Shown: positions 9,351 through 32,007 of the stretch, piece by piece
Numbering within the stretch: the first letter of the stretch is position 1
Layout of the letters: each line of letters begins with the position of its first letter
Origin: an uncultured Methanomicrobia archaeon
GTDB lineage: Archaea; Halobacteriota; Bog-38; Methanoflorentales; Methanoflorentaceae
Reading direction: 5' to 3'
Assembly (NCBI GenBank): GCA_964534635.1
Contig: CAZHSW010000060.1
Coordinates: 1 to 33,695 of the forward strand
Length of the DNA stretch: 33,695 bases
Notes under the pieces: model-generated
Told to the model about the DNA's origin: nothing
Seen by the model: the letters and a program-made list of their open reading frames with translations, nothing else
Database searches by the model: none
Made by a program: the position numbers and the translations under genes

Positions 9351-9674
9351 ATGACGGAGCTAGAACCGTCAGTCCTGCAGCAAATTAGGAAAAAAGAGGT
9401 CGAGCTAAGCGTAAAATCTGACCAAGCGCGGCGAGACGCCGAGCAGATTGTCGCAGAGGCGAAACGAGAAGCAGCTGCTACGTTAAGTGCGGCGGAGAAT
9501 GAGGGAAGAACCGTCGCTAACGAGTCTTATAAAATTGGACTAGCCAGCGTCATGGACGAGGTCGCGAGACTCAAGCGGCTCGGTGAAGAAGAGACTAAAT
9601 CTGCGAAACTGCAAGGAGAGCGCAATTTGCCGCGAGCGGTAGACCAAATTGTGAAAGTCATAATTCCGGAGTAG
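9351..9674 (+). CDS. atpH: A-type ATP synthase subunit H (operon 1)
   Basis: 107 aa Ala/Glu/Arg/Lys-rich coiled coil. It is the first gene of a canonical H-I-K-E-C-F-A-B-D array. Confidence 0.75.
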   Translation: MTELEPSVLQQIRKKEVELSVKSDQARRDAEQIVAEAKREAAATLSAAENEGRTVANESYKIGLASVMDEVARLKRLGEEETKSAKLQGERNLPRAVDQIVKVIIPE

Positions 9675-9678
9675 CAGT

Positions 9679-11601
9679 ATGCTCCAAAAAATGGCCAAAA
9701 TCCAGATCATCGGGCCAAAGGATGACTTGCACAGCGCCGTCGATTTTCTATATAATCTTGGGACTGTCCATCTAGAAGACGCGTCGACTACGATTGCTCC
9801 GGGAGACACAATGTTGCGACGTGGACTAACAGGCCCGAAAGCCGACGTCTCAGGCGTGTTAATCAAGGTCAGCGGGATGTTCAACCTGCTCCCTGTAATG
9901 ACCGTCGAAGAGACGCTACGAACACAACTCTACGGCCAGCTTCGATGGAAAAATGATGATGAACTCGTCAGCGAGGCAACCCAGGTCATAAGCGAGCTTG
10001 AGGCTACAACAAAAGAGCTTGCGACCCGAAAAAGTGACATAGAGTTTACGTTGACCAATTTGGCGCAGTACGAACGAGTGGTTGAAAAGCTGCGACCTTT
10101 GGAAGACCAGCTTCCTTTTTTGGAGGGGTTCGAAGTCACGGTAATTCTCATCCAACGCGAGTTTAAAGACGTTTTAGAGATTATTCGCGCGGCACTTGTT
10201 GAGATTACTCACAACCAATTCGAGTTGATGTCGGCTGACGTCGACGAAGAGACAACAGCCGCAGTCACGGTATTTAACAAGAGATACTCGGAGCAAGTAC
10301 ACTCATTCATTTGGTCGCAAAATGTTAATGAGGTCAGACTCCCTCCTGAATACTTAGACAAGCCGTTTGGCGAAGTATTGACGCTCGTAGAGGAGCGACG
10401 GCAAGGTGCCAACGCGGAGATAGCGACCGTCAATGAAGAGCTCGCAGCGCTGTCCGGGCACTGGTATCCAAAGCTTTCGGTGCTCAAAGACGTTCTGGAA
10501 GACAGAAACAACGAGCTCAGTGTTTTTTCAAAGTTTGGACAAACGGACTACACCTTCGTGATGCTGGGCTGGGTTCCAAAAAAACAGCTGGCTAACACAA
10601 AAAATGCATTGAGAGAGGCATTTAAGGGGCGAGTCATTGTTAACGATCTGAAAGTAAGTCGAGACGAAGAGAAAAATGCGCCATCGTTCTATGATAACCC
10701 TCGAATCATCAAACCTTTTGAGTTTCTGAGTGGATTGTTGAGTCCACCGCAATACGGAGAGATTGAACCGACGCCTTTGCTCGCGCTTTTCTTCCCGTTT
10801 TTCTTCGGCTTTATGGTAGGCGACATCGGGTACGCCATCTGTATATTAGCGTTTGCGCTAGTGGTGCGACAGTTCTACGGGAGGCGCAGTAACGCCATCA
10901 AGCAGCTCATGAACATCCTGATCATCTGCTCTATTCCAACGATGTTCTTCGGCTATCTCTACGGCGAGTTCTTCGGAAATCTAGGACAAATGATGGGCTG
11001 GATCCACCCAGTAACGATAAACGGGTTGACACTCGACAGGATCAACATTATCGTACCGCTGCTCATTTTCACGATCGCCGTTGGGATATTTCACGTTTTT
11101 CTCGGCCTCGGTTTAGGTATAATGAATGCTATCTCATATCAGAACAAAAAGCTCGTGTGCTCTAGGGCTGGCCTGATGCTCGCCTTGACGAGCATAATAT
11201 TAATCCTGCTTGCGGTAGTTGCAGTGATTCCCTCGATACTCGTAACCCCCGGCATCGTTTTGCTCGTTATTGCACTCCCGCTAATCTTCTATGGGGGCGG
11301 AATAGTGGGAGCAATAGAGGTTATGAGCGCGTTTACAAACGTGCTCTCATATGCGAGATTAATGGCAATCGGACTGGCTTCCGTAGTACTAGCGCTGGTA
11401 GCCAATGACCTCGGAAGCTCAATGGGAATTGTTCTGGTAGGTTTTTTGATAGCAGCACTGCTTCACGGATTAAACGTTGTGCTGTGTATGTTTAGCCCCT
11501 CGCTCCAATCACTCAGACTTCATATCGTAGAGTTCTATTCAAAGTTTTACGAGGGTGGGGGCAGACGTTACGATCCTTTTAAGCGGGGGACGGTAAAATG
11601 A
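9679..11601 (+). CDS. atpI: A-type ATP synthase subunit I (a-subunit, operon 1)
   Basis: 640 aa. A soluble N-terminal half is followed by multiple TM helices. The conserved LSYARLMAIGLAS segment carries the essential Arg. Confidence 0.9.
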   Translation: MLQKMAKIQIIGPKDDLHSAVDFLYNLGTVHLEDASTTIAPGDTMLRRGLTGPKADVSGVLIKVSGMFNLLPVMTVEETLRTQLYGQLRWKNDDELVSEATQVISELEATTKELATRKSDIEFTLTNLAQYERVVEKLRPLEDQLPFLEGFEVTVILIQREFKDVLEIIRAALVEITHNQFELMSADVDEETTAAVTVFNKRYSEQVHSFIWSQNVNEVRLPPEYLDKPFGEVLTLVEERRQGANAEIATVNEELAALSGHWYPKLSVLKDVLEDRNNELSVFSKFGQTDYTFVMLGWVPKKQLANTKNALREAFKGRVIVNDLKVSRDEEKNAPSFYDNPRIIKPFEFLSGLLSPPQYGEIEPTPLLALFFPFFFGFMVGDIGYAICILAFALVVRQFYGRRSNAIKQLMNILIICSIPTMFFGYLYGEFFGNLGQMMGWIHPVTINGLTLDRINIIVPLLIFTIAVGIFHVFLGLGLGIMNAISYQNKKLVCSRAGLMLALTSIILILLAVVAVIPSILVTPGIVLLVIALPLIFYGGGIVGAIEVMSAFTNVLSYARLMAIGLASVVLALVANDLGSSMGIVLVGFLIAALLHGLNVVLCMFSPSLQSLRLHIVEFYSKFYEGGGRRYDPFKRGTVK

Positions 11602-11817
11602 GTGTCAAGTTGGCTCTCAAGCCGCACAAGACGCCGGATTTTAGAAAGGAGGTAAAAAAACCCACCTTAACCGTCTGAAAGACGGACGGATCTATAACCT
11701 GAATCAGTTGACGGCACGTGCTTTTAATGTCAGTATTTTGTCTAAACCGGAAATTTGCAGAAGATAACGGGCTACTTAAGAGGCGAAACTAAAAAACCAC
11801 ACGGAGTTGATGAAAAG

Positions 11818-12036
11818 ATGGTCGAACCAATGATACCAATCGGCGCTGGGATTGCCTTCGGACTAGGTGCGCTCGGAACGGGCATAGCACAAGCGAGAAT
11901 CGGCGCAGCCGGGGCAGGAGTAATTGCAGAAAAACCAGAATTATTCGGTTTAGCGCTTGTTTTTGTGGCGCTGCCAGAAACGTTAGTCATCTTAGGCTTC
12001 GTCATCGCAGCCATAATCCTTTTTGTTCTAGTCTGA
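11818..12036 (+). CDS. atpK: A-type ATP synthase subunit K (c-subunit/proteolipid, operon 1)
   Basis: 72 aa two-helix hairpin with a Gly/Ala-rich helix 1 containing Q25, loop AEKPE, and helix 2 motif ALPETLVILG (E54-T55). I placed the start at ATG 11818; the ORF track start (TTG 11755) adds a hydrophilic extension. Confidence 0.85.
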   Translation: MVEPMIPIGAGIAFGLGALGTGIAQARIGAAGAGVIAEKPELFGLALVFVALPETLVILGFVIAAIILFVLV

Positions 12037-12184
12037 CGCCACGAGAGCTAGACAGTCAAATGTTGAAGTAAGGCCTCTTCTCGCGGTCTCAAAACTGATT
12101 CGTGAGATAAGATAGTCAAACGAGCTATCGCCCCAATGACGCAAAAAGCGTGCTTTCAAAGGGAGAACTAGAACGAGGTGAAAA

Positions 12185-12769
12185 ATGACGTACGAGAATT
12201 TGATTGAATCCATGGAGGTGAGCGCCGAAAAGAGAATCAATGAGATACTGAAAAATGCACACGAACAAAGCGGTGAAATTAAGAGGACTGCACTGACAAA
12301 AGCCGAATCGATAAAAACGGCATACCTAGAGGAGGCACAAAAATCAGTTGATGTGGAACGAAATAAACTAATATACCAAGTTAAAGCCGAAAACAAAATG
12401 AACGTCATAAAAGAGAAGGACCGCGTCATAAGAAGCGCGTTCGCTGAAGCTAAAAAACGCCTAGAAAACTTCAGAAATGACGGAAATTATCACGATAACT
12501 TCAAAAAAATGCTACAGGAAGCAGTTAATGCATTGGCGACAAAGAAAGTGCTGCTTCATATCGACAAGCGCGACGAAAACCTCTGCAGGCAAGTATTGAA
12601 CGAATTAAACATCAATTCGGAAATTGTCGCTGACTTAAAAAGCGAGGGAGGGCTAGCAGTCAGCACGAAAGACGGAAAAATTGTCGTTTTTAATACGTTA
12701 GAGTCACGACTGGCCAAAGCCGAAGAACTGATGAGGCGAGAAATTTTCGCGACCATTTACGGTGATTAG
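12185..12769 (+). CDS. atpE: A-type ATP synthase subunit E (operon 1)
   Basis: 194 aa with a long charged N-terminal helix plus a C-terminal globular part, positioned between K and C. GAGGTGA Shine-Dalgarno sequence upstream of the ATG. Confidence 0.8.
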   Translation: MTYENLIESMEVSAEKRINEILKNAHEQSGEIKRTALTKAESIKTAYLEEAQKSVDVERNKLIYQVKAENKMNVIKEKDRVIRSAFAEAKKRLENFRNDGNYHDNFKKMLQEAVNALATKKVLLHIDKRDENLCRQVLNELNINSEIVADLKSEGGLAVSTKDGKIVVFNTLESRLAKAEELMRREIFATIYGD

Positions 12770-13820
12770 CTTGGACTACGAATTCGTCAACGCTCGAATA
12801 CGGGGCATGAAAAGTCGCTTACTGGATCGGAAGAAGCTCGAGGCACTGGTGGCAAAGTTAGACATTGATTCCGTAATCGATGAGTTGTCAAGTACTCCCT
12901 ATCGCCCAGACATAGAAGATGCCAGCGTTCAATACGCTGGCCTTGCTTGTGTCGAAGAAGCGTTGCGGCGAAATCTGGGGAAGACCCTTCGTCTCTTATT
13001 TAAGTTCTTGAAAGGAGAAGACGCGGAGCGATTTGTTAACGTCTTTTTGAACAAGTGGGACGTTCAAAACATAAAAACGATCTTGCGAGGAAAAAACATC
13101 CACGAAGTGGCTGACGAAATCCTCGCGAGCTTAGCACCCGCAGGTGCGCTTGACGATGCAACCCTCATTGAGCTTGTAAAGCAGCCAGATGTCAAGGCTG
13201 TAATCGATTTACTAGCTACCTGGGGAATCGAATATTACAAGCCGCTTACTCAGCATTTCACGGAGTTTAGCGAAACAAGGGACCTGGCCGTCTTGGAATA
13301 CGCGTTAGATAAATTTTACTACAACAGTGCGCTGGACGCTGTCGCAGGCGACTCTTACGACGAAGCGATTGTTCGACAGATCGTTAGATCCGAGATAGAC
13401 GTAACGAACATAAAAAACATCTTACGCATCATACGTGACAAGGTGGAACCGGAAAATGCTACTTATTACTTCATTCGCGGCGGAAAGGAGCTAGACTTTG
13501 ATAAGCTGGTAATCGTCAGTCAAGCACGGACGACTGAAGGCGTTATTAAACTATTATCTAACACCTCCTATGGTTTCCTCACTGAGATCCCCAACGAGTA
13601 CGTCACAACTGAAAAGATTTCCGCATTTGAAAAGGCGCTAGACAAGTTCCTCCTGCAAAAAGCGCTGGCTATGTTCTCAGGAGATCCTTTAAGCTTCGCC
13701 ATGGTTGTCGGTTATTTATGGGCCAAATTGAACGAAATAACCAACATCAGGATAATTGCGACCTGCAAAACAGAATACTGTCCAGAAAAGGAACTGATGG
13801 AGGAGCTCGTCTTTGTTTAA
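12762..13820 (+). CDS. atpC: A-type ATP synthase subunit C (d-subunit homolog, operon 1)
   Basis: 352 aa helical protein. The motif WDVQNIKTILRGK is shared with the paralog (WDIREIKTILRGK). The GTG start overlaps the atpE stop. Confidence 0.85.
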   Translation: MISLDYEFVNARIRGMKSRLLDRKKLEALVAKLDIDSVIDELSSTPYRPDIEDASVQYAGLACVEEALRRNLGKTLRLLFKFLKGEDAERFVNVFLNKWDVQNIKTILRGKNIHEVADEILASLAPAGALDDATLIELVKQPDVKAVIDLLATWGIEYYKPLTQHFTEFSETRDLAVLEYALDKFYYNSALDAVAGDSYDEAIVRQIVRSEIDVTNIKNILRIIRDKVEPENATYYFIRGGKELDFDKLVIVSQARTTEGVIKLLSNTSYGFLTEIPNEYVTTEKISAFEKALDKFLLQKALAMFSGDPLSFAMVVGYLWAKLNEITNIRIIATCKTEYCPEKELMEELVFV

Positions 13821-14133
13821 GTTTGTGGTAATCACGGATCCAGAAACAGCACCAGGATTTCGACTCGCAGGAGTTGACGTGATTGAGGCGTCGACTGGCG
13901 AAGAGGCGAAGACCATAATTCCGTCCCTGCTATTTAAGGATGACACAGGCATCGTCGCGGTTAATGAGGATTTTATGGAATCCTTGGACGAGAAGCTATT
14001 GCAAAAGATCGAGAAGACACATCGGCCGATCGTTATTTCGATCCCGTCGCGAACACAGCGGATTGATCGCGCTGATTATATCGAAAGAATGCTTCGCAGG
14101 GCGATTGGGTATAATATCGTGGTAAGGAGATAG
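13813..14133 (+). CDS. atpF: A-type ATP synthase subunit F (operon 1)
   Basis: 106 aa. FKFVVITDPETAPGFRLAGV is the typical F-subunit N-terminus. TTG start overlaps the atpC end. Confidence 0.8.
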   Translation: MFKFVVITDPETAPGFRLAGVDVIEASTGEEAKTIIPSLLFKDDTGIVAVNEDFMESLDEKLLQKIEKTHRPIVISIPSRTQRIDRADYIERMLRRAIGYNIVVRR

Positions 14134-14136
14134 GGT

Positions 14137-15876
14137 ATGTTGCAAGGATTAATCTCACGGATCTCTGGTCCAGTGGTCTACGCCCATGAAATGCGCGGAT
14201 CTAAACTCTATGACGTTGTGCGAGTCGGTCACGAGAAGCTCAACGGAGAGATTATACGATTGGACGCAGACGAAGCAGTTATTCAAGTCTATGAAGATAC
14301 TTCAGGACTCACGGTTGGAGAGCCGGTTGAGAACACGGAGACTCCGTTGAGCGTTGAACTTGGACCGGGCATAATTTCGTCGATCTACGATGGCATTCAG
14401 CGGCCTCTTCCGATACTAATGGAAAAAAGCGGCGACTTCATTTCGCGGGGCATTACTCTGCCCGGAGTGGATCGGAAACGGCAGTGGGCGTTAACTGCCG
14501 TTGCGAAAAAGGGCGACGTCGTAGCCTCTGGAGACGTTCTGGGGACCGTCAACGAATACCATATTTCGCACAAGATCATGGTTCCGCCTCACGTTTCGGG
14601 GGTTGTCTCTGAAATAGAGAGTGGTACATTCACCGTGGAAGACGCCGTGTGCGTCTTAGACAACGGGACTTCGATAACACTTTTGCAAAAGTGGCCGGTA
14701 CGAAGAGGCAGGCCTTATGCTAGGAAGCTCGATCCGACTTTGCCCTTGCTAACTGGACAACGCGTTTTTGACAGCATGTTTCCAGTAACGAAGGGGGGCA
14801 CTGCTATGATTCCGGGTGGCTTTGGGACGGGAAAGACCGTGTCGGAACAAACGCTCGCAAAGTGGGCAGATGCAGAAATTGTGGTATACATTGGCTGCGG
14901 AGAGCGCGGCAATGAGATGACTGACGTGCTTACCGAATTTCCTGCCTTGATCGACCCTCGAACCAAGCAACCATTGATCCAAAGAACCATCATGATAGCC
15001 AACACCTCAAACATGCCGGTGGCAGCGAGAGAGGCTTCGATTTATACAGGCATAACGATGGCAGAATATTATAGGGACATGGGGTACGACGTAGCTTTAA
15101 TGGCTGACTCGACTTCGCGGTGGGGAGAAGCGCTTCGCGAGGTCTCGGGAAGGCTGGAAGAGATGCCAGGCGAAGAGGGGTACCCTGCGTATCTCGCGAC
15201 TAGGTTGGCTGCTTTTTACGAACGTGCTGGTAGGGTCGTTTGCTTGGGCTCCGATGAACGAACCGGATCCATAACAGTGGTAGGCGCGGTATCACCGCCT
15301 GGAGGCGACTTTTCTGAGCCCATCACACAAAACACGCTTAGAATAGCCGGGGCTTTCTGGGCATTGGACACGAGTTTGGCGTACAGGCGACATTTTCCGG
15401 CCATCAACTGGATAAACAGCTACTCACTCTACGTTGACAGCGTCCAAGATTGGTTTGTGGACAGCATTGCACGCGACTGGCGATTTCTTCGAGACAAGAC
15501 GATGTTTCTCCTGCAAAAGGAGGTTGAGCTCCAAGAAATCGTTCAACTAGTGGGGCCGGACGCGTTGCCGGAGGGAGAGAAGGCAATCCTCGAAGTGACG
15601 AGAATGATCCGAGAAGACTTTTTGCAGCAGAGCGCTTTTGACGAGATTGACTCTTTTTGCCCGCTAGACAAGCAGTACTGGATGCTAAAGGCGATCCTCA
15701 CATTTCACGACGCAATCACAGAGGCCCTTAGCAAGGGAGTTTCGCTCCCCCAAGTGTTGGAATTGCCGGTGAAAACAGAAATCGCACGGATGAAGGAACT
15801 TAAGGACGTGGGCACTATAGAAACCCTTATACGCAAAATAGATGAGAGTATCGGAACTCTGGAGGCCGCGCAATGA
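14137..15876 (+). CDS. atpA: A-type ATP synthase catalytic subunit A (operon 1)
   Basis: 579 aa. Walker A reads GGFGTGKT. Conserved blocks are [43 protein letters not shown] and [13 protein letters not shown]. Confidence 0.95.
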
Positions 15877-17270
15877 AATCTGACAGCCTGCTCACCAAAG
15901 ATTACAAGACGATCAATTATGTGTCTGGACCGCTTATATTCACTGAAAACGTAAAAGGAGTCTCTTTCGGGGAGACAGCCAAGATTACACTTGCTAATGG
16001 CGAAGAACGTACGGGCCAAGTCTTAGACGTCTCGCAAGAGCTTGCGATTGTTCAAGTCTTTGAGGGTACTAGCGGCATTGACGACTTAGAGACGCGGGTC
16101 AGATTTACGGGAGAGCCACCGAAAGTAAACGTCTCATTTGACATGCTTGGGAGGATTTTTGATGGTGTCGGCAATCCAAGAGACGGCGGGCCTCCTGTCA
16201 TCTCGGAAGAAAGTGTCGATATAACAGGTACGCCGATCAATCCGTATGCCCGCGACAAGCCGGCAGATTTCATCCAAACGGGTATGTCGGCAATCGATGG
16301 CTTAAACACGCTCGTGCGGGGACAGAAGCTTCCTATATTCTCTGGGTCTGGTCTGCCAGCGAATAGGCTAGCCGCGCAAATCGCCCGGCAAGCTAAGGTG
16401 CTGGGCGAAGGTGAGAACTTCGCCGTCGTTTTTGCAGCGATGGGTATCACTTACAAGGACGCGTCATTCTTTATGAGAGATTTTGAACGAACGGGCGCAC
16501 TCGAGCGCGTCGTTTTCTTCATGAACTTAGCAGACGACCCAACCATAGAGCGCGTCGCAACGCCTCGATGCGCTTTGTCAGCAGCAGAATACCTTGCTTA
16601 TGCCCACAACTTGCACGTGCTCGTTATCCTGACTGACATGACGAACTATTGTGAGGCTTTGCGAGAGATCTCCACTGCGCGCGAGGAGGTGCCTGGCCGA
16701 CGCGGTTATCCCGGATACATGTACACGGATCTAGCGTCAATTTATGAACGCGCTGGGCGCATCAAAGGCAAGAAAGGATCCATCACCCAAATACCTATAC
16801 TGACTATGCCAGACGATGATATTACTCATCCGGTGCCGGACTTAACTGGTTACATAACGGAAGGGCAAATCGTACTGAGTAGGGATCTGTATAGGCGAGG
16901 AGTTGATCCGCCGATTGATGCGCTTCCCTGTTTGTCTAGGCTGATGAACCTCGGCATTGGCGCAGAAAAAACGCGAGAGGATCACCGAAATGTCGCCGAT
17001 CAACTCTATGCGTCCTATGCATACGGGCGAGACCTAAGACGTTTGGTCGCGATTGTTGGAGAAGAAGCTCTGACTGAGCTTGACAAAAAATATCTCGAAT
17101 TTGCGGACGAATTTGAGAGGAAATTCATTTCGCAAGGAAACGAAGACCGGAACATCGGAGCGACTATGGGGATAGCTTGGGACCTCTTCTCGATGCTTCC
17201 TGAGGACGAGCTCAAGCGCATAAAGTTGGAGTACATTAAGAGATATCATCCTGTCTATAAGGGGCAATGA
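15873..17270 (+). CDS. atpB: A-type ATP synthase subunit B (operon 1)
   Basis: 465 aa. Contains [21 protein letters not shown] (degenerate P-loop of B subunits), [12 protein letters not shown] and [21 protein letters not shown] overlap with atpA. Confidence 0.95.
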
Positions 17271-17271
17271 C

Positions 17272-17937
17272 GTGGAACAAGTCAATCCGACTAGGATGGA
17301 ACTAATTAAGAAAAACGCGCAAATCAAATTGGCCGAGCAAGGCAGAGATCTTCTGCGCGAAAAGATGGACGCCCTCATTCAGGAGTTCTTTCACATTATG
17401 GTGTCAGTTTCAAAATCGCGAGAGGAGCTCGAAATCGCCGCCGCCGTTGCGCAGCGTTCGCTGTCCGTTGCGGAAGCAGTCGACGACCCGGTCGCGCTAA
17501 AATCGGCATCTTTCGCAACGAAAAGAGCTCTGGCGCTTGACATTAGAGGCAAGAACATAATGGGGGTTCCTGTCCCACTTGTGCAGAGAACGAGCGTCAC
17601 AAAGAGCGTGCTGGAACGGGGTTATAGCTTGATCGGAACGAGCGGCCGGATTGACGAAGCAGCAGAGAAGTTCGAGGCCGAGCTAGACCTAATCGTCGGA
17701 CTAGCAGAAACTGAAACGTCCCTCCGCAGGCTCGGTGACGAAATTCAGATGAACCGAAGGCGCGTTAATGCCCTTGAACAAGTACTTATCCCTGAGTTGA
17801 AGCGTCAAGCCAAGTACATCAAGATAGCGATCGAAGAACGGGAGAGGGAGGATCTATATCGCTTAAAAAAAGTCAAGAAGATCCTCGAACGACGGAAAGC
17901 GACAAAGAAGAAACCAATAATAGCCACTAGTGCGTAA
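17272..17937 (+). CDS. atpD: A-type ATP synthase subunit D (central stalk, operon 1)
   Basis: 221 aa coiled-coil protein with N-terminal PTRMELIKK motif and C-terminal RRVNALE...IEEREREDLYRLKK. GTG start 1 nt after the atpB stop. Confidence 0.85.
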   Translation: MEQVNPTRMELIKKNAQIKLAEQGRDLLREKMDALIQEFFHIMVSVSKSREELEIAAAVAQRSLSVAEAVDDPVALKSASFATKRALALDIRGKNIMGVPVPLVQRTSVTKSVLERGYSLIGTSGRIDEAAEKFEAELDLIVGLAETETSLRRLGDEIQMNRRRVNALEQVLIPELKRQAKYIKIAIEEREREDLYRLKKVKKILERRKATKKKPIIATSA

Positions 17938-18000
17938 ATTTGACGCGTTGCCCACAGCTCGTCAAGTTGTGCCTATCGCGCTTGTGTGAGACGGATAGCA

Positions 18001-18330
18001 CTACTCTTTGCGGACGAGCGCGGTGCAAACTTCGTCGATCGCAACTTTTTCACTTTTTTCTTTGTTTTCAACTTGTTTTGCAGCCGTTATGATTCCCTCT
18101 AAATCAACCTTTGTCAACCTCGAAAAAGAGATGTTTTCCCATTCGCTGCGTGTGATACAGACCCAAACCTCACCTAGAAACTGCTTGAGCATATCGATGT
18201 CTGCTGAAGTAAACGACTTCCATTCTGACGGCATTTTGCGCCGAATTTTTTCGAGTGCAACCTCAACGGCTTTTTCCTTGTGAATTTGAAACAGCCGCCT
18301 TCCAACTTCCTCGTCTCGGGCTTCGGGCAT
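18001..18330 (-). CDS. Hypothetical protein (109 aa) at the convergence point of the two ATPase operons
   Basis: ATG is preceded by GGGGT. The composition is charged and plausible, whereas the antisense ORF is Ser/Phe-rich junk. I recognised no family. It is co-oriented with operon 2, 187 nt downstream of its atpD. Confidence 0.45.
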   Translation of the reverse strand: MPEARDEEVGRRLFQIHKEKAVEVALEKIRRKMPSEWKSFTSADIDMLKQFLGEVWVCITRSEWENISFSRLTKVDLEGIITAAKQVENKEKSEKVAIDEVCTALVRKE

Positions 18331-18467
18331 AACGCGACCCCATACATACTGTATCTATTCGAATATCTTTTTTGCGGAAACTGAGGCTTTCTGACTTTCT
18401 AAGAGCTGTATATGCTTGAATTAGTTCGCCGCGTTCATCCAGACTGGACCGTTCAAAAACCTCCAGC

Positions 18468-18474
18468 AAAAAAA
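18468..18474 (-). terminator. Oligo-T (T7) tract downstream of operon 2 atpD
   Basis: An A7 run on the + strand gives T7 on the coding strand, about 44 nt after the atpD stop (18518). A T7 run on the + strand at 18497-18503 makes the region symmetric. Confidence 0.3.
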
Positions 18475-18517
18475 CTACCGAAATGAGCACAAGAGGTTTT
18501 TTTCGCTAAATAAGATT

Positions 18518-19159
18518 TCAGGCTGCTTCTGACGATGCTGCTTTAAGCTTGATTTTCTTCAGTCGGAAGATGTTTTCGCGTTCCATTTCTTCAAGCCTGA
18601 AGACGATGAACGCCTCAGCCTCTTTTAAATCTGGAATAACGCGAAATTCGAGAGCATTCACGCGACGTTTTATTCGCTCGATTTCCATGAGCAGTCGCTT
18701 GACAGCTGTCTCGACTTCTGCGGCTCGAATGACCTTGTCTAACAGCTCCTCATAAGCAGCTGCGGCTTCATCAATGGCTGATGAAGTTCCGATAATTCCG
18801 TACCCTCGCTCATCTATATTTTGACTGATACTGGTGAAAGACACCTCTGGGACCACGACACCCATCATACTTCTGCTTGTTAAGGCTACTTCAGGCTTGT
18901 TCTTTAACGCAAACGCGGCAGAATAGACTTCGATCACACCTTCGACCATTTTTGCGATGTCTATCTTCTCCTTAGCGACTCTGTACGTGTTCGCCAAATC
19001 CATGCTCGCATCCTTAGCTTTCTCAAGGACGTCAAAGAATTCGAGAATAAGCCCATCGCGCTTCATCTTCAGCAAATCGTGGCCTGATTCGGATAAACGT
19101 ATTTTCTTCTTAATCTCGAGCAGTTCCGATCGTGTTGGTTTTATTTCCCTTAAAGCCAT
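18518..19159 (-). CDS. atpD: A-type ATP synthase subunit D (operon 2)
   Basis: 213 aa. N-terminal KPTRSELLEIKKK...GHDLLKMKRD and C-terminal RRVNALE...LEEMERENIFRLKK. Confidence 0.85.
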   Translation of the reverse strand: MALREIKPTRSELLEIKKKIRLSESGHDLLKMKRDGLILEFFDVLEKAKDASMDLANTYRVAKEKIDIAKMVEGVIEVYSAAFALKNKPEVALTSRSMMGVVVPEVSFTSISQNIDERGYGIIGTSSAIDEAAAAYEELLDKVIRAAEVETAVKRLLMEIERIKRRVNALEFRVIPDLKEAEAFIVFRLEEMERENIFRLKKIKLKAASSEAA

Positions 19160-19237: not shown

Positions 19238-20653
19238 TCAAGAAGGCGCTGCAACTGGCTCCTCTGCCTTTTTTCCGATGTGTGCAGGATGGTATTTCTC
19301 AATAAGCTTTTTATCAATTCTCGTCAGCTGTGCTTCAGGCAGCGCAGCCAATAAGTCCCAACCGAGCTTGAGCGTATCCTCAATACCTCGGTCTTCTTCG
19401 TAACCCTGCCGTACGAACTTGTCTTCGAATTCATCGGCAAAGTCGAGAAGCGTCTTGTCGCGGTCTGATAGTGACTCTTTCCCGACGATCGCTACAAGGC
19501 CGCGTAGGTCCTTGCCTTCGGCATACCCCGCGTAAAGCTGATCCGAAACAGCCTTGTGGTCCTCTCGCGTCTTACCAACTCCAATCCCAGAGTTCATCAG
19601 GCGGGAGAGCGAAGGAAGCACGTTAACAGGCGGATAAATTCCTCGCCGGTGCAGCTCACGAGAGATCACAAATTGCCCTTCAGTTATATATCCAGTCAGA
19701 TCGGGAATTGGATGAGTGATGTCGTCACCGGGCATAGTTAGAATGGGGATCTGCGTAATTGAGCCGATCTTCCCGCGAATTCGTCCCGCTCGTTCGTAAA
19801 CCGACGCGAGGTCGGTGTACATATACCCCGGATAACCACGTCGGCCAGGCACCTCCTCACGCGCCGCACCGATCTGTCGCAGGGCCTCGCAATAGTTCGT
19901 CATGTCGGTAAGGATGACCAAGACGTGCATATCGTGCTCATAAGCCAGATATTCGGCTGTCGTAAGCGCAAGCCGAGGGGTAATCAATCGCTCGATGGCT
20001 GGGTCGTCGGCCAAATTCAAAAACACAACAGCACGCTCAAGAGCGCCAGTACGCTCAAAATCATTCATAAAGTGTTGCGCTTCTTCTGCCGTGATGCCCA
20101 TCGCAACAAATATGACGGCAAAAGCTTCCTCGGCGCCTAATACCTTCGCCTGCCGAGCGATTTGCAGGGCTAGGTCATTATGCGGAAGACCAGATCCAGA
20201 AAAAATAGGCAATTTCTGGCCTCTAACGAGCGTGTTCATCCCGTCGATAGTTGAGATGCCAGTTTGAATGAATTCTGAAGGGTTGTCTCGAGCGTACGGA
20301 TTGATCGCTGCGCCCGTAATGTCAAGTCGCTTTTCAGGTACGATTTCTGGCCCGCCGTCAAGTGGCTCCCCCGACCCAGAGAGGATCCGACCCAGTATTT
20401 CTTTCGACACAGGCATTTTGATGACTTCGCCGGTAAACCGAATGCGCGAGTGCGTGTCAATACCCGCCGTTGTCTCGAACACTTGGATAGCAACCAACTT
20501 CTCAGACGTATCTAGAACCTGTCCCCGTTTTACCGTTCCGTCGTCTAGGATGACGTTGACGAGCTCCATGTATCCAACCGGCTCTGTTTTCTCGACAAAA
20601 ACGAGAGGGCCGGCGATGGACGTGATTGTTCGATATTCTTTCATTTTCTTCAC
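19238..20653 (-). CDS. atpB: A-type ATP synthase subunit B (operon 2)
   Basis: 471 aa. Contains [33 protein letters not shown] and [17 protein letters not shown]. The start is either GTG 20653 or ATG 20644. Confidence 0.95.
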
Positions 20654-22381
20654 CTATGCGAGTGCCGCCCGCATGGCCGTCTCAACTTCTTCAAGCTTCG
20701 TTCCGTATTCCTCTTCAAACTTTATTTGTGCCAGCTCCGCTTTTGCGGGGAGGTTTATGATTTCATCAACGAGCTTGCCCATGTTAAGTGCTTTTTTCGC
20801 GAGGTCGTCGTAAACCATTATAGCAGCAAGGATATCGTGCTGTTTTTGAAGAGCGCAGTAGGTGTCGACCTCGTGATAGGCATTTTGCTGCAGGAAGTAC
20901 TCTCGAATCATCCGCGCAACTTCCAAGGTCAGTTGCTCATCATCCGGGAGCGCGTCAGATCCTACGAGTTGCACAACTTCCTGAAGTTCACTTTCTTTCT
21001 GCAGTATCGCCATAGCGCGCATTCGAAGGTCTTCCCAATCTCCAGCAACGCGGTCAGTAAACCATTCTGCCAAATTCTGCGTGTAGAGGCTATACGAATC
21101 AAGCCAATTGATAGAGGGAAAATGACGCCGCTGCGAAAGCTTGCTGTCAAGAGCCCAGAAGACTTTAACGATCCTAAGCGTGTTTTGGGTCACTGGCTCA
21201 GAGAAGTCCCCACCAGGGGGGCTGACCGCCCCGATAACGGTGATTGAACCCTCATCGCCGCCGAGAGTCTTCACGCGTCCGGCCCGCTCATAAAATTCCG
21301 AGAGCCTCGCAGCAAGGTAGGCAGGATAACCCTCTTCTCCGGGCATTTCCTCCAGACGTGAGGAGATCTCACGCATCGCTTCAGCCCATCTAGACGTCGA
21401 GTCCGCCATTAGCGAGACGTCGTACCCCATATCGCGGAAATACTCGGCTATCGTTAAACCCGTGTACACGGAAGCCTCGCGCGCAGCCACTGGCATGTTG
21501 GAGGTGTTTGCGACGAGTACGGTTCTGTCCATCAGGGGCGCGTTCGTTTGGGGGTCCTCAAGCTCGGGGAATTCGGTAAGCACGTCTGCCATCTCATTGC
21601 CGCGCTCCCCACAGCCGATGTATACAACAATCTGCGTGTCAGACCATTTTGCGAGTTGTTGCTGCGCAACTGTCTTGCCAGAACCAAAAGGCCCTGGAAT
21701 AGCTGCGGTCCCGCCTTTCGCTACCGGAAACAGCGCGTCGAGGATCCGTTGGCCAGTAATAAGTGGAATATCAGGCATCAGTTTCTCGCTAGATGGTCTC
21801 GAAACACGCACGGGCCATTCTTGCATCAGCTTGAGTTGGGTTCCATCTTCCAAGGTGCAGATTATATCGTCAACAGTATGTTCTCCAGGCTCTATAGTGG
21901 CTATTTTTCCTTCTTTATCTGGCGGAATCATAATCTTGTGCTTCAAATTAGCAGTCTCTTGCACGTATCCTATCGACTGCCCTGCGTGAACTTCCGCGCC
22001 CGGCTGGACCTCTGGCACGAAGTCCCACTTCTTTGAGTGATCAAGCCCCGAAGCAGCTACGCCACGCTCAATAAAGTCTCCCAGCTTCAGGTTCAACACC
22101 GGAAGCGGCCGTTGGATGCCGTCGTAAATCGAGCCTAACAAGCCGGGCCCAAGCTCGACGGATAAAGGCAAGCCAGTATTCTCTACGGGCTCTCCGGGCT
22201 TGAGGCCAGAAGTATCCTCATAGACTTGAATAACAAACTTGTCGCGGTCGATCTCTATAACTTCGCCCATCAAGCCTTCTTCACCGACTTTGACAAGATC
22301 GTACATCTTCGCTTCGATTCCAGTAACGGTAACAACGGGTCCTGCAACCCTGTAAATTCTTCCCTTTTGTTCTACTTCCAC
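20654..22381 (-). CDS. atpA: A-type ATP synthase catalytic subunit A (operon 2)
   Basis: 575 aa. Walker A is the canonical GPFGSGKT. It has the same conserved blocks as the operon 1 copy. The GTG start overlaps the atpF end. Confidence 0.95.
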
Positions 22382-22683
22382 AGGTCAACACCTACAGATC
22401 TCTTTATCTTCTCTCTCAGATGGGTACGCTCATCTGCCGCTCCACCAATTGAGATCACGGTGGGTTCGACCGAGTCGTCTAACGCAATTCGCAGCGGCGT
22501 GGACAGTTTCTCAACATCGTCGCTACTCATGATCAATATGCCGATGTCCTCCTCCTTCAAAACCTCCTTAAGCGTTGGCTCAAGACTCTCGTCAGTTGTG
22601 ATAAAGGTCTTTCGAACGCCCGCTAGCAAAAAACCGGTTACAAAATCCGCATTGCCTACAACTGCAACTTCCAAGCAACTCAC
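22372..22683 (-). CDS. atpF: A-type ATP synthase subunit F (operon 2)
   Basis: 103 aa. [20 protein letters not shown] is an F-subunit N-terminus. Confidence 0.8.
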
Positions 22684-22713
22684 CGCCCGTAACTACTTGC
22701 CACTGCGTGCCCT

Positions 22714-23784
22714 CTATAAGATTAGATGATCTTTAATAATTTCTTCTGGCAGATGTGCCTCTTTTCCTCGCGCTATCGCTTGGATGTTTTCCACTTCCGT
22801 GTCCTTGCTTAACATGTAGCCTAACATCGGCAATACGGTCAACGGATGGAACGTAGAGGTCTTCCAAACGTGCTCATTGAGGTATTTGTCAAGCCTTAGT
22901 TCGATCTTGCTCAACGATTCCATCTGTTCGGTGACTATATCAGAAATTGCGTCCCAATATGGGTATTTGCCAACGAGAGCGATGAGTTCAGCTATTGGGG
23001 CATTGGCCATCTTCTCGATTTCTTGGCGACGGACGTACAGTCCGTCGGGTATGATGTATTCCAGCACTCGAGAGCCGGAAATGCCAGCTTTTCTCAATCT
23101 AAACAACGTTTTTAGATTTACGACGTCAATCTCCATCTTAACGACGTTTAAATAAAGCGAGGAACCCGTAATCTTAGAAACGAGATCAACCATCCTTGCG
23201 TAATAGAACTGATCCAGCGCGTCCTCAAGCTTCATCAAGGACTCCGCGTAGTCGATATCTTTGATGACCTCATAGTAGACTGTGCCTTTCAAAGCCTCAA
23301 CGGCCTCTTGGACGCTTGATTTCTTTACTAGCGTTTGCAGGAACTCAAGGGAAAGCTCGCCGCTAGGAACCAGTACCCTCATTATCTCTTCCTCAGAAGC
23401 CCCGTACAGTTTCCCCCTAAGTATAGTCTTGATTTCGCGAATATCCCATCGTCTTAGGTATTCCACAATCAATTGGTGAGGCTCTCCCATCGTCATCTCT
23501 GTGAGCTTGACGAACGTTCGGGCTAAGTTGAGATGCGTTGCGAATTCGATGAGGTCTATACCAGAGTACCTACGTGCGAGCTCGTCAACTTCAGCCTTGT
23601 ACTCTGACTCCTCAATGAAGCGCGTCAGTTCAGGAATCGCCATTAAAAGCAATTTTGCATAGGTCTCTGCCGGCAGAAGCTTGACCTTCATAGCGCGCAC
23701 GCGGGCAGTGCCGTAAGCGTACCTAGCTTTGACTGAAGATCCAGCGTATCTTCGCTTTTTTGCCTGCGCTTTCATCCCGCTCAC
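22714..23784 (-). CDS. atpC: A-type ATP synthase subunit C (operon 2)
   Basis: 356 aa helical protein with the WDIREIKTILRGK motif. The GTGA overlap with atpE is one start option; ATG 23775 is the other. Confidence 0.85.
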   Translation of the reverse strand: MSGMKAQAKKRRYAGSSVKARYAYGTARVRAMKVKLLPAETYAKLLLMAIPELTRFIEESEYKAEVDELARRYSGIDLIEFATHLNLARTFVKLTEMTMGEPHQLIVEYLRRWDIREIKTILRGKLYGASEEEIMRVLVPSGELSLEFLQTLVKKSSVQEAVEALKGTVYYEVIKDIDYAESLMKLEDALDQFYYARMVDLVSKITGSSLYLNVVKMEIDVVNLKTLFRLRKAGISGSRVLEYIIPDGLYVRRQEIEKMANAPIAELIALVGKYPYWDAISDIVTEQMESLSKIELRLDKYLNEHVWKTSTFHPLTVLPMLGYMLSKDTEVENIQAIARGKEAHLPEEIIKDHLIL

Positions 23785-24329
23785 ACGTTTAATGTCTCTA
23801 GCAGCTGTTTCAAAGAGTCCCCTCGCACGTCCTTGAGTATAGTATCAAACGTGAGATCGCGCATGACTGTTCCGTCCTCGTTTTCCAGAATTACGCCGCC
23901 CGAACATTGAATCGTTCCGCCGTATTCTAAGCTGCTGATACGCTGAACTAGGGCCTTGTCGTTTTCATTCGAAAATACTCTAGCGTATTCATTCTGGGAT
24001 TCCAGCAGTTTTTTGATGAGATTCTCTCTTTCTGCTTCGGGTAGCGAGGCTAAGACATCAATAGCTTCATAGTATATTCGATCTATCAGTTCCTTCTTAG
24101 CGTTTAAAATGGACCGTTTGACCTCGAGATGCGCACTTGATATCTCTCGGTTCTTTCGGCGCTTGTTCAGCTCAATAGTCTGCTCCCGTTTTTCTGCAAG
24201 GATCTGACGCGCTGTATTTTCGGCACCCGCGATAATAGCATCCGCTTCAGATTGGCCTTGTTGCCTAATCTGATTGGCTTCTGCTTCTGCTCGTGCCAGA
24301 ACGTCTTTAACAACGACCTCCAAACCCAT
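23781..24329 (-). CDS. atpE: A-type ATP synthase subunit E (operon 2)
   Basis: 182 aa with a long charged N-terminal helix, positioned between K and C. Confidence 0.8.
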   Translation of the reverse strand: MGLEVVVKDVLARAEAEANQIRQQGQSEADAIIAGAENTARQILAEKREQTIELNKRRKNREISSAHLEVKRSILNAKKELIDRIYYEAIDVLASLPEAERENLIKKLLESQNEYARVFSNENDKALVQRISSLEYGGTIQCSGGVILENEDGTVMRDLTFDTILKDVRGDSLKQLLETLNV

Positions 24330-24335
24330 AGGTCC

Positions 24336-24578
24336 TCAATGTATGGCAGGCAAGGCTACAAAGAGCAATATCAACGCCACGACCAGTCCAAAAATGACGA
24401 TAGATTCTGGGATAACTGTCATCACCAGACCTCTACCGAAAAAACCTTCATCTTCCGCCATGACACCTATGGCTGCTGAGCCAATGACTTGCTCGCCTAT
24501 GGCGGCTGCTATTCCAGTTACGCTGACCGCTATCGCTGCTGACAATGCGATCAGCCCTGCTCCCATTGGATCTACCAT
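24336..24578 (-). CDS. atpK: A-type ATP synthase subunit K (c-subunit, operon 2)
   Basis: 80 aa two-helix hairpin. Helix 1 reads ...AAAIGEQVIGSAAIG (E29-Q30), the loop is AEDEG, and helix 2 is VIPESIVIFG (E58-S59). The ATG directly abuts the atpI stop (TAAATG). Confidence 0.9.
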   Translation of the reverse strand: MVDPMGAGLIALSAAIAVSVTGIAAAIGEQVIGSAAIGVMAEDEGFFGRGLVMTVIPESIVIFGLVVALILLFVALPAIH

Positions 24579-26492
24579 TTACGTTTCCTCCGTATACTTT
24601 CTCCTAAAACCGAACGGTCTATATTTAATTCCACCTCCACGATAGAACTTCGTGAAGAATTCAACATAGTGTAATCTCAAAGCCTGCAATCCAGAATCTA
24701 GGATACCCAGAGCGGTATTTACCGAGTGTCCAACGAGTAGCATTAAGACACCAAAAATGACAAAAATGCCTCCTCGCGAGAAGAATAGTGCGTCAGACAA
24801 CCTGTTCACGGCGAGGGCAATTCCGGCTGATGAGATGCCGATTGATAGAAGTCGAGAATATGAAAGCACATTAGAAAGAAGGCCAGGAAGCTCCACAATC
24901 CCGATGACTCCTTCGCCCGCAATCAGCAACACAAAGCCAACGACGGCGACTGCCAAACCTGCAATCAGCCCAGCCGAGAGCTGAATTCCCGATCCCGTGG
25001 TGAGGGGTGGCAAAATAAGGGCGATGGCAAGCACGCCTCCCCACAACATGCAGATCCAGCTCACTTTAACGAAGATCGCGTGCTTTAACCCGTGTTGCCT
25101 ATACTCATTAACAAAGCCTAGAACAAACCCGATCGTGAGCATTATTATACCAATGATCAGGGTCGCGATGAGGAGGGTGAGCACATTATCCAGCCGCGGA
25201 ATCGCCGGGTACTCAGAAATGAACGTGAGCAAGCCCTTATGTCCAAGGAATTCCACTCCAAAGAACTCGTTAAAGATAAAGCCGAATATGATCGAAAAAA
25301 CACCTGCGTAAAGGGCAACGGTAGCCAAATCTCGAACGCCCTTCGATTTTACCCATCGGGTCAATAAAACAGCCAACGCGATGACGACGACGCCGTACCC
25401 GATGTCGCCTAGCATCAATCCAAAAAGAAAAGGATACATGAATGCCATGAAAGTCGTTGGATCAATCTCATTGTACTTTGGAAGCGAAAAGGCTTTTACT
25501 AGTACCTCAAGTGGCCGCGTTGGCATCGGGTTGCTAAGTGCTATGGGGACTTTGTCAACGTCGCCGAGTTCAGAGTCGTCGACTGCGACTACAACGTGCC
25601 CGTGTGCGGCTTCGTCCATTTCACGTTGAACCAATTCAAAGTCTTTAGTAGGGACCCAACCCTCTACTACAAACGCGTTCTTCGTAGTGGCGAAGCGCAG
25701 CGGGGCTTCTGCTTTTTGCGTTTCAATGGAGAGGTACTCATCTGAGGCTAAGATATACTCGATATATTTTTGCCGAAGGCCTGCTAAGTCATCTTCGCTC
25801 TGGCGTTTATCTGACTCAAGTTCTGTGAGCTCTCCGTCGAGATCCGCGAGCAGGTCTCTTGGCACACCCTCTAGTTGTGGGAGTGGAAGAGCGGCATAGC
25901 TATGGTCCTGCAAGCGTTTCAAAATATCTTCTTCGAATTCTCGAGGCGCAAAAAGAGCGATCGCCAGACCACGTCCATACGGGACAGTCTCGAGCTCATA
26001 GTCTTGAGTGATATCGCTAATCGTTGGCGACCCTTTCAGCGTTCCTACAAATACTGCCAGAGAGCGGTAGCCGCTATAAAGATCGAGCGGCAGGTCGAAA
26101 CTCTTAAGAGGGTCGAGCAACCGCTTCTTTTCTTTAGTATCCTTGATTTTGGATTCGATCTCGTTTATCCTTTCTGTGACTTGCGTGACTTCAACATCGA
26201 GGCGCTTTGTTTTCTCGTCGATAGTGTCGATGATAGTCCTTTCTAAGAACTTACTCGGAATCTCCTCTTTGCCCTTGATGTGGAGATAGCTTGCAATGGA
26301 CCGCAACGAAACCGCGCGCTCAGAAAGCTGGGTGATACGTGCATAAGGCTTGCCGATTTTGAAGTCCTGATCTTCATCAACGAAGTCCTTAATATGGATA
26401 GCATCGCGCTTATGCATCGCGTCGATGGCGATGCCCATGTATTCTTCAGACCCTGCAATGATGACCTTGGTCATCGGTTGCGGCTCAAACAT
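24579..26492 (-). CDS. atpI: A-type ATP synthase subunit I (operon 2)
   Basis: About 637-645 aa, with a soluble N-terminal half plus TM helices and LSYSRLLSIGISS carrying the conserved Arg. I chose ATG 26492 as the start (8-nt overlap with the atpH stop). The ORF track start is TTG 26516, and ATG 26474 is also possible. Confidence 0.9.
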   Translation of the reverse strand: MFEPQPMTKVIIAGSEEYMGIAIDAMHKRDAIHIKDFVDEDQDFKIGKPYARITQLSERAVSLRSIASYLHIKGKEEIPSKFLERTIIDTIDEKTKRLDVEVTQVTERINEIESKIKDTKEKKRLLDPLKSFDLPLDLYSGYRSLAVFVGTLKGSPTISDITQDYELETVPYGRGLAIALFAPREFEEDILKRLQDHSYAALPLPQLEGVPRDLLADLDGELTELESDKRQSEDDLAGLRQKYIEYILASDEYLSIETQKAEAPLRFATTKNAFVVEGWVPTKDFELVQREMDEAAHGHVVVAVDDSELGDVDKVPIALSNPMPTRPLEVLVKAFSLPKYNEIDPTTFMAFMYPFLFGLMLGDIGYGVVVIALAVLLTRWVKSKGVRDLATVALYAGVFSIIFGFIFNEFFGVEFLGHKGLLTFISEYPAIPRLDNVLTLLIATLIIGIIMLTIGFVLGFVNEYRQHGLKHAIFVKVSWICMLWGGVLAIALILPPLTTGSGIQLSAGLIAGLAVAVVGFVLLIAGEGVIGIVELPGLLSNVLSYSRLLSIGISSAGIALAVNRLSDALFFSRGGIFVIFGVLMLLVGHSVNTALGILDSGLQALRLHYVEFFTKFYRGGGIKYRPFGFRRKYTEET

Positions 26493-26808
26493 AACGGGTT
26501 CCCTTAAACTCCTCAATTAAATAAGAGAGAGCCTCCGCGTGCTTCTTCTCTGCGCGCTCTTTGACTTTCAAGACGTCTGCCTCTCCCGCTTTATAGATTT
26601 CTTGCGTAGCTTTGCTTATTTCTGCGTCGGCGCTCGCATTCAAGTCTTCCGCTATCTTAATCGCTTCTTGTTCTGCGGCATCAATAATCTGCAACGATTT
26701 CTTCTTTGCGTCCTCGATTGTGGCTTCTTTTTGGGTCTGCGCTTCGTCGATCATCCGTTGGGCTTCCGCTTCGGCAGCCTTGATCTGAGATAGTATCTCT
26801 GCCTTCAT
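26485..26808 (-). CDS. atpH: A-type ATP synthase subunit H (operon 2)
   Basis: 107 aa Ala/Glu/Lys-rich coiled coil. It is the first gene of the reverse-strand H-I-K-E-C-F-A-B-D array. Confidence 0.75.
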   Translation of the reverse strand: MKAEILSQIKAAEAEAQRMIDEAQTQKEATIEDAKKKSLQIIDAAEQEAIKIAEDLNASADAEISKATQEIYKAGEADVLKVKERAEKKHAEALSYLIEEFKGTRYV

Positions 26809-26841
26809 GTGACCAAACCCGCGGTATAATGACGAGGGATG

Positions 26842-32002: not shown

Positions 32003-32007
32003 ACTGG

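Follow-up and report, generated by a model that had tools for sequence, protein, structure and literature searches.

The 33,695-nt window analysed here (contig CAZHSW010000060.1 of assembly GCA_964534635.1; all coordinates are window positions) carries two complete operons for A1AO-type ATP synthases. Operon 1 lies on the plus strand (9351-17937) and operon 2 on the minus strand (26808-18518), and each encodes nine intact subunits in the order H-I-K-E-C-F-A-B-D, so that both converge on a gap of 580 nt (17938-18517) with a single open reading frame (ORF) inside, which encodes 109 amino acids on the minus strand and is hereafter called ORF109. A preliminary description of the window, made from the sequence alone, had reported this content, order and gap, and the ORF list matched it exactly. 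All 18 ATPase genes gave hits to the expected Pfam families, namely V-ATPase_G_2 (H), V_ATPase_I (I), ATP-synt_C (K), vATP-synt_E (E), vATP-synt_AC39 (C), ATP-synt_F (F), ATP-synt_ab together with the A-specific Xtn domain (A), ATP-synt_ab (B) and ATP-synt_D (D), and none contains an internal stop codon. The features are listed below, where loci L001-L092 denote the comparison genome loci.

8992..18536, 9.5-kb segment comprising ORF52, operon 1 and ORF109; blastn against L084-L086, where it corresponds to 134 nt
9173..9331, plus strand, ORF52, a 52-amino-acid gene called in L001; motif KLKxGAxxRCRER...RGL; tblastn
9351..9674, plus strand, H1, peripheral stalk; PF16999, 30.7 bits
9679..11601, plus strand, I1, membrane a-subunit; PF01496, arginine of LSYARL
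11818..12036, plus strand, K1, single-hairpin rotor proteolipid of 72 amino acids; PF00137, Gln...LPETLVILG
12185..12769, plus strand, E1, peripheral stalk; PF01991
12762..13820, plus strand, C1, rotor socket; PF01992, 258.7 bits
13813..14133, plus strand, F1, central stalk; PF01990
14137..15876, plus strand, A1, catalytic subunit; PF00006, PF16886, PF22919 and PF02874, P-loop GGFGTGKT
15873..17270, plus strand, B1, non-catalytic subunit; PF00006 and PF22919, without Walker A
17272..17937, plus strand, D1, central stalk; PF01813
18001..18330, minus strand, ORF109, conserved gene; AlphaFold (AF2) model, without Pfam or NCBIfam family
18518..19159, minus strand, D2; PF01813
19238..20653, minus strand, B2; PF00006 and PF22919
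20654..22381, minus strand, A2, catalytic subunit; Pfam, P-loop GPFGSGKT, tree
22372..22683, minus strand, F2; PF01990
22714..23784, minus strand, C2; PF01992
23781..24329, minus strand, E2; PF01991
24336..24578, minus strand, K2, single hairpin of 80 amino acids; PF00137, Glu...VIPESIVIFG
24579..26516, minus strand, I2; PF01496, arginine of LSYSRL
26485..26808, minus strand, H2; PF16999 (weak), TIGR02926 AhaH at 42.5 bits

A Walker A motif is present in both A subunits (GGFGTGKT in A1 and GPFGSGKT in A2) and absent from both B subunits, and the non-homologous insert domain of A subunits (PF16886) was found in A1 as well as in A2. As had been noted before, the membrane-subunit arginine is kept in both copies (LSYARL at residue 556 of I1, LSYSRL at residue 551 of I2), and so is the helix-2 glutamate of K1 (PET) and K2 (PES), which aligns to the carboxylate of Thermus and Enterococcus hirae. 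Two gene models call for comment: the start of K1 is probably the ATG at 11818, as called in L087 and L091, and not the TTG at 11755, and H2 scored weakly in Pfam (20 bits) and below the cutoff of 48.5 bits for TIGR02926. K1 is flanked by unusually long non-coding spacers (11602-11817 and 12037-12184), which are seen in relatives too, with poor nucleotide conservation, and which may be linked to a separate expression of the rotor subunit; searching Rfam at gathering thresholds gave no match anywhere in the window, these spacers included.

The two operons are strongly diverged. Amino acid identity between the corresponding subunits was 66% for B, 60% for A, 43% for K, 40% for D, 29% for C, 27% for I and 25% for F, while E (21%) and H (20%) can hardly be aligned, in agreement with what had been judged by eye. 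All five peptide runs quoted as shared in the preliminary description do occur in both copies, and its codon example holds likewise: positions 16704-16739 and the reverse of 19802-19837 encode the same 12 residues with 7 of the 12 codons differing.

An assembly or binning chimera, in which a Methanomicrobiales contig was joined to one of Candidatus Methanoflorens, is conceivable in so far as populations of both share peat metagenomes and the join would fall into a non-coding gap. Against this, the stretch from D1 across ORF109 to D2 is spanned by the ENA contig k141_984875 (99.85% identity over 16,978 nt) and likewise by JGI Ga0187770_10005899 (99.9%), which stems from a different project; short-read as well as long-read assemblies made independently in different projects show the same junction. 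The convergent layout is also kept in five GTDB species representatives (L004-L008) at 73-80% nucleotide identity and in the deeper-branching genomes L087 and L088, whose A2 is 84% identical. The junction is hence found in at least six species-level genomes and co-diverges with them, and a conserved gene sits in the gap. The D1-ORF109-D2 junction is not chimeric; the artefact against which the preliminary description had cautioned has, in our judgement, next to no chance of being real.

We placed both enzymes in a neighbour-joining tree of the A subunit (68 sequences, 568 columns, 100 bootstraps) and in a neighbour-joining tree of the concatenated I, C, A, B and D subunits (2,242 columns, 200 bootstraps, bacterial outgroups). 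In the A tree, A2 fell into a clade with Methanocellaceae and Methanosarcinales that had 100% support, A1 fell inside a clade of Methanomicrobiales primary enzymes, and the extra operons carried by Methanomicrobiaceae and Methanoregulaceae formed a third clade; other archaeal and bacterial lineages fell between the A1 and A2 types in this broad tree. Identities follow the same pattern, with 60% between A1 and A2 as against 77% between A1 and Methanoregula and 74% between A2 and Methanosarcinales (ranges: 76-78% for A1 to Methanoregula and 72-78% across Methanoregula and other Methanomicrobiales, its nearest relatives outside its own clade; 73-75% for A2 to Methanosarcinales, its nearest relatives). 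The P-loop variant GGFGTGKT was present in all operon-1-type A subunits and in those only, GPFGSGKT being the version found in operon 2 and its relatives. A recent tandem or inverted duplication was therefore rejected, since the copies are not each other's closest relatives, and the earlier view that the pair does not result from such an event stands. Recent sister paralogy, which would speak against horizontal acquisition, was likewise not seen, because A1 and A2 lie in separate clades. Judged from these trees, the two operons are of different evolutionary origin and not duplicates that arose within the lineage.

The neighbourhood of the operons bears on which of them belongs to the host. On the left, the window carries archaeal housekeeping genes (GatB, topoisomerase, the geranylgeranylglyceryl phosphate synthase PcrB, Tsr3, MTH865 and CBS), and on the right a cluster for carbon monoxide dehydrogenase/acetyl-CoA synthase (CODH/ACS). 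Locus L005, which has both operons and is syntenic with the window, belongs to the metagenome-assembled genome (MAG) SPRUCE 210, which has been assigned to Candidatus Methanoflorens crillii (PMC12296737), and M. stordalenmirensis has been counted under the Methanocellales (PMC11176372). The names Bog-38, Ca. Methanoflorentaceae and Rice Cluster II all refer to a single lineage of methanogens, which is reported to be the dominant one in northern peat. Given the identity of SPRUCE 210 and this literature, the host is a methanogen of the Candidatus Methanoflorens lineage and no acetogen, and the acetogenic-type context proposed in the preliminary description gives way to a methanogenic one. In all relatives, operon 2 was found in a conserved synteny block, even where operon 1 is absent or displaced. 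As it stays in this neighbourhood even in a relative without operon 1, it looks native to the lineage, being of the Methanocellales/Methanosarcinales type.

Operon 1 behaves differently. By blastn, positions 2899-8991 and 18537-32370 of the window were collinear with L084, whereas the 9,545 nt in between (8992-18536) correspond to 134 nt there. Both flanks and operon 2 are kept in all of L084-L086, and operon 1 is not at the site. The missing segment consists of ORF52, operon 1 and ORF109 and thereby amounts to an eleven-gene module in the style of the Methanomicrobiales. Loci L084-L086 carry the A2 variant P0019 (92% identical), the most abundant variant, present in 295 collection blocks; when the match lists for A1, A2 and ORF109 were compared, no A1 or ORF109 cluster was found on the same long contigs as P0019 and P0026, which suggests, indirectly, that operon 1 is absent altogether from the P0019/P0026 lineage. 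Yet another layout was seen in L089 and in L091 and L092, where the operon 1 module lies beyond the CBS-MTH865-Tsr3 block with ORF109 still joined to D1; three to four housekeeping genes part the operons in L089 and L091, and in L089 an Elf1-like gene was also called in the block between them. In L091 and L092, an operon for an Ech/Mbh-like [NiFe] energy-converting hydrogenase (1-4310) is located directly upstream of ORF52 and operon 1.

This survey of relatives, which the preliminary description had proposed, thus recovered the convergent arrangement in L004-L008 and in L087 and L088 and showed that the mirror-image abutment is one of three layouts in the family. The palindromic gene order, on which that description had laid emphasis, was rejected as a feature in itself because relatives break it, either by separation (L089, L091) or by lacking operon 1 at the site (L084-L086). 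As the module sits in the spacer downstream of the D gene of operon 2, the mirror layout can be seen as a by-product of its position. With regard to age, the A1 and A2 subtrees were congruent in the A tree as well as in the concatenated tree, which, together with the pairing in the deep branch L087 and L088, indicates that the association predates the sampled radiation. The empty site of L084-L086 was consequently rejected as the ancestral state, since the A2 tree and L087 and L088 show the paired layout to be older.

How did a lineage placed with the Methanocellales come to possess an enzyme of the Methanomicrobiales? Because the Methanomicrobiales are the more distant order from the host, vertical inheritance would predict operon 2 to be closer to its relatives than operon 1 is to its own. 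The reverse was found: operon 1 shares 56-58% (I), 54-57% (C), 68-69% (F) and 78-81% (D) identity with Methanoregula, as against 38% (I), 42% (C), 49-53% (F) and 61-62% (D) between operon 2 and Methanosarcinales/Methanocellaceae. In the concatenated tree, the Methanoflorens operon 1 clade was sister to Methanoregula (59% support), and its position in the Methanomicrobiales clade, where its nesting has moderate support, would differ from that of the host, which the literature places with the Methanocellales. We favour, without regarding it as proven, an old horizontal transfer of operon 1 from a Methanoregula-like donor, which we consider the probable course of events. Of the candidate explanations offered in the preliminary description, horizontal acquisition is hence the preferred one, with which a difference in ion coupling, itself unproven, may be combined.

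A number of observations weigh against such a transfer. The nesting of operon 1 within the Methanomicrobiales was recovered in 155 of 200 bootstraps, which is moderate and comes from neighbour-joining trees, while in 22% of the bootstraps (45/200) the Methanomicrobiales were monophyletic to the exclusion of operon 1, which was then their sister. The comparison of codon usage and G+C content at third codon positions (GC3), which had been suggested as a transfer test, left the operons indistinguishable: the distance in relative synonymous codon usage between operons 1 and 2 (0.223) equals the null mean, and the distances to the flanks (0.267 and 0.291) are within the null range. Neither direct nor inverted repeats were found at 8992/18536, and the window contains no integrase or transposase genes. 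In the A2 tree, P0019, the lineage without operon 1, nests beside carriers (93% support), so that the empty site more likely reflects secondary loss or relocation and does not by itself prove an insertion. Finally, the host was placed from the literature and one syntenic MAG. The lack of a codon or GC3 signal could be due to both operons being equally ameliorated, and the missing compositional signal and boundary marks together fit an old event.

Several of these points would also suit an ancient paralogy followed by differential loss, in which an ancestor shared by all class II methanogens (Methanomicrobiales, Methanocellales, Methanosarcinales and Methanoflorens) had both types; Methanoflorens would have retained the two, and one would have disappeared from most other lineages. 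Indeed, the tree of operon-1-type enzymes has very short internal branches, the sister position appears in the 45 bootstraps mentioned above, the pairing goes back as far as the sampled family itself, and neither composition nor mobile elements left a trace of transfer. A reciprocal combination exists as well: the Methanomicrobiales MAG SMAG_U14911 (L024, 14.7-20.5 kb) carries, in tandem behind its primary operon, one of the Methanocellales type, whose A subunit is 71% identical to A2 and groups with Methanocellaceae (79% bootstrap). The similarity of operon 1 to Methanoregula, which exceeds that of operon 2 to the closer orders, nevertheless runs counter to what vertical inheritance predicts. 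The trend in the concatenated tree is for operon 1 to join Methanoregula instead of falling outside the order, its type was not seen in the loci of Methanocellaceae or Methanosarcinales (L032, L090), and other archaeal and bacterial lineages part the two types in the broad A tree. On balance, we regard this scenario as possible and rather unlikely.

The opposite direction, with operon 1 native and operon 2 acquired from a Methanosarcinales- or Methanocellales-like donor, draws on a mismatch in depth seen in L087 (GCA_054328555.1). In this genome, the operon 1 subunits A, I, C and F are 88, 73, 72 and 84% identical to those of the window, which is no lower than in shallow relatives, while those of operon 2 are much more diverged (84, 57, 59 and 61%, respectively). 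This mismatch may mean that operon 1 moved within the family, or that operon 2 evolved faster in the L087 lineage. L024 moreover illustrates that other orders can gain Methanocellales-type operons. On the other side, operon 2 stays in its synteny block in every relative, the companion genes specific to Methanomicrobiales travel with operon 1, and the literature position of the host with the Methanocellales equals the tree position of operon 2, which together make an acquisition of operon 2 quite improbable.

These companion genes are small, conserved and without annotation, and they accompany A1AO operons of the Methanomicrobiales type. ORF52 was located upstream of H in all Methanoflorens copies of operon 1, in Methanoregula, in Methanoregulaceae and in L024 (tblastn), and Methanoregula has extra copies of it downstream of D; it could be a candidate for an unrecognised accessory or regulatory gene of the operon-1 class. 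ORF109 is 68-83% identical across relatives, with a ratio of nonsynonymous to synonymous substitution rates (dN/dS) of 0.12-0.16, and its homologs (35-50% identity) adjoin the primary operon in many Methanomicrobiales, where they are usually convergent and lie just downstream of D. The AF2 model of ORF109 is confident (predicted local distance difference test score, pLDDT, 87.8), and the protein is all-helical and soluble. Foldseek against the PDB returned no fold match for it (best E 0.68), no Pfam or NCBIfam family was assigned, and the homolog search gave hypothetical proteins only.

All 18 ATPase genes had dN/dS values of 0.02-0.15 in comparisons with their orthologs in L004, L005, L008 and L087, with dS at or near saturation, and both operons are under strong purifying selection. 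They are also predicted, from their intact subunits and motifs, to encode functional A1AO enzymes. One might still suppose that a single operon does the work and that the other is silent or being lost, the arrangement having no functional meaning, given that the abundant P0019/P0026 lineage (L084-L086) appears to live without operon 1 at the site. Yet 18 intact genes with their catalytic and ion-translocation motifs, low dN/dS in four species-level comparisons and the persistence of the operon pair across the family, even after local rearrangement, make redundancy or decay very improbable. With stators as divergent as these (21% identity for E, 20% for H) and rotors that differ in their ion sites, two separate enzymes with stators that would not be interchangeable are the likelier reading, as the preliminary description had proposed; their separate assembly is inferred.

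With respect to the rotor, K1 resembles the K subunit of the V/A-ATPase of Thermus thermophilus (E 2e-18), a proton-coupled enzyme, and has the same ion-site residues except for a Phe-to-Leu change at the equivalent of Tyr68. Its segments in helix 1 (...AQARIGAAG...) and helix 2 (LPETLVILG) follow the same pattern as the K subunits of Methanoregula. K2 has a glutamate in helix 1 (...IGEQVIG...) that aligns with the glutamine of Thermus, with Gln110 of E. hirae and with the glutamate of the Methanomethylovorans hollandica K subunit, and its helix 2 (VIPESIVIFG) resembles that of the latter (E...VIPETIVIFG). K2 hence carries the second glutamate at the helix-1 position that marks the two-carboxylate Methanosarcina type. 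For M. acetivorans, PMC3692424 describes a c-ring predicted to have two glutamates per site and an enzyme that couples to Na+ as well as to H+. The full Na+ motif of E. hirae NtpK (helix-1 Gln plus PETQxxYG) is absent from K1 (PETLVILG) and from K2 (PESIVIFG), neither of which has a residue equivalent to Gln65 or Tyr68. From their ion-site residues, K1 and K2 may plausibly differ in the ion that they use. What speaks against such a difference is the strict ProAD/Mulkidjanian rule, which scores both K subunits as H+-type, so that different ion use is not established.

In sum, we propose that operon 2 is the native enzyme of the lineage, flanked by the CODH/ACS cluster on one side and the CBS-MTH865-Tsr3-PcrB genes on the other, and that the operon 1 module, with ORF52 and ORF109, would have entered by horizontal transfer of the whole operon. 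The donor would have been a peat methanogen resembling Methanoregula, and the event would precede the divergence of the sampled family members, both direction and timing being inferred. The module would have taken the short spacer downstream of the operon 2 D gene, which would have produced the mirror-image layout by accident, and both enzymes, with their chemically different rotor ion sites, would have been retained since by purifying selection. They might divide the labour such that one enzyme is tuned to protons and either makes ATP from the large pH gradient found in acidic peat or spends ATP to expel H+, and such that the other is able to draw in addition on the Na+ gradient that the methyltransferase Mtr builds up. 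A more far-reaching idea is that the gain was adaptive: the proton-tuned Methanoregula-type module, with ORF52 and ORF109 perhaps as accessory or regulatory genes, would have provided two ion circuits in acidic peat and would serve as an ecotype marker. We consider this doubtful for now. If it were true, the Na+ gradient of Mtr would feed the native two-carboxylate enzyme and protons the acquired one, which would either make ATP, from the gradient of an Ech-type hydrogenase and the pH difference to the outside, or expel H+ at the cost of ATP; presence or absence of the module would separate ecotypes of a globally important methane producer. Because Ca. Methanoflorens is reported to dominate among the methanogens of northern peat, its energy conservation bears on methane-emission models. 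A stably retained second ATP synthase of foreign type, found in most sampled lineages and missing from this site in one abundant lineage, is a candidate niche adaptation (to pH, or to ion economy at the thermodynamic limit).

Two further parts of the window drew our attention. The CODH/ACS cluster beside operon 2 (26923-33684) encodes an AcsE-like methyltransferase (methyl-tetrahydrofolate:corrinoid Fe-S protein; NF005719, 243.8 bits at a cutoff of 259), a RACo-type reductive activator and a short delta subunit of 315 amino acids, which recall the acetyl-CoA pathway clusters of bacteria, although the genome is that of a methanogen. On the far left, a 216-amino-acid ORF on the minus strand (1942-2592) had no Pfam match, and a syntenic ORF of about 226 amino acids is present in L084-L086.

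Multiple A-type ATPases in one genome are already known. According to ProAD (PMC11738941), most archaea have one A-ATPase and 3% of the archaeal genera have at least two. A pair of enzymes both predicted to use H+ occurs in 11 genera, enzymes that differ in their predicted ion in 7, and a set of two H+ enzymes plus one Na+ enzyme in 8 genera of the Methanomicrobiales. These multi-ATPase genera, together with the adjacent second operons, some of them convergent, that we saw in Methanomicrobiaceae and Methanoregulaceae loci, weaken the novelty that had been claimed for the arrangement. The likeness to the ProAD cases lies in two complete A-type clusters per genome and, in Methanomicrobiaceae, even in a primary operon and a second operon that converge on ORF109. 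Indeed, at about 14.4-21 kb on the minus strand of L013, L016 and L021, the ORF109 homolog is directly followed by another A-type operon in convergent orientation, an architecture as in the window with a partner enzyme of a different, third type. The K subunit of this enzyme, about 250 amino acids long, forms a triple hairpin (LPQTQGIYG, LPETQAIYG, MSETFAIFG) and so has one full Na+ site per three hairpins. Unlike in those Methanomicrobiales, the host here is Ca. Methanoflorens and the partner is of the Methanosarcinales/Methanocellales type and not a Na+ triple-hairpin enzyme. Neither Bog-38 nor Methanoflorens is named in the ProAD text and supplement, and our literature search found no description of Methanoflorens ATPases, so the present case appears to be unreported.

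At the level of single subunits, K2 is like the A1AO enzyme of Methanosarcina acetivorans (Schlegel et al. 2012, as summarised in PMC3692424) in having a helix-1 glutamate and a helix-2 glutamate followed by Ser/Thr. It differs from the K subunits of Methanosarcinales in its serine (PES) in place of threonine (PET), and the ion coupling in Methanoflorens is a prediction from sequence. K1 is nearly identical to the rotor subunit of the Thermus thermophilus V/A-ATPase (PDB 6QUM, 5GAR) in the segments GTG(I/V)AQARIGAAG and LPETLVI(L/F)G; the latter enzyme is bacterial, however, and the comparison concerns the rotor subunit; the remaining operon 1 subunits are most similar to those of the Methanomicrobiales.

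Whole-operon transfer, too, has precedents in the archaea. Wang et al. (2019) described how complete ATPase operons, about 8.9 kb in size, were transferred horizontally between archaeal phyla, in connection with adaptation to acid and pressure (PMC6863869), a study that is also cited in PMC10656485. Their case of a V-type-like operon in Thaumarchaeota shares with ours an operon of about 9 kb that is whole, a discordance between ATPase and organism trees (apparent in our case) and the acidic setting, and some of the recipients (hadopelagic ammonia-oxidizing archaea) keep both the native and the acquired operon. The presence/absence polymorphism at a conserved site (9.5 kb versus 134 nt) is likewise as for transferred ATPase operons, with loss being possible. 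By contrast, donor and recipient would here be two methanogen orders of one phylum, the acquired type is the primary enzyme of the Methanomicrobiales and not a V-type-like enzyme of an acidophile clade, and mobile-element genes do not flank it; moreover, pH-dependent expression and a heterologous test are reported for the Thaumarchaeota, while the Methanoflorens operons are known from their genes. The locus thus adds a within-phylum example to the exchange of whole ATPase operons in the Archaea and leaves the general picture of rotary ATPases unchanged.

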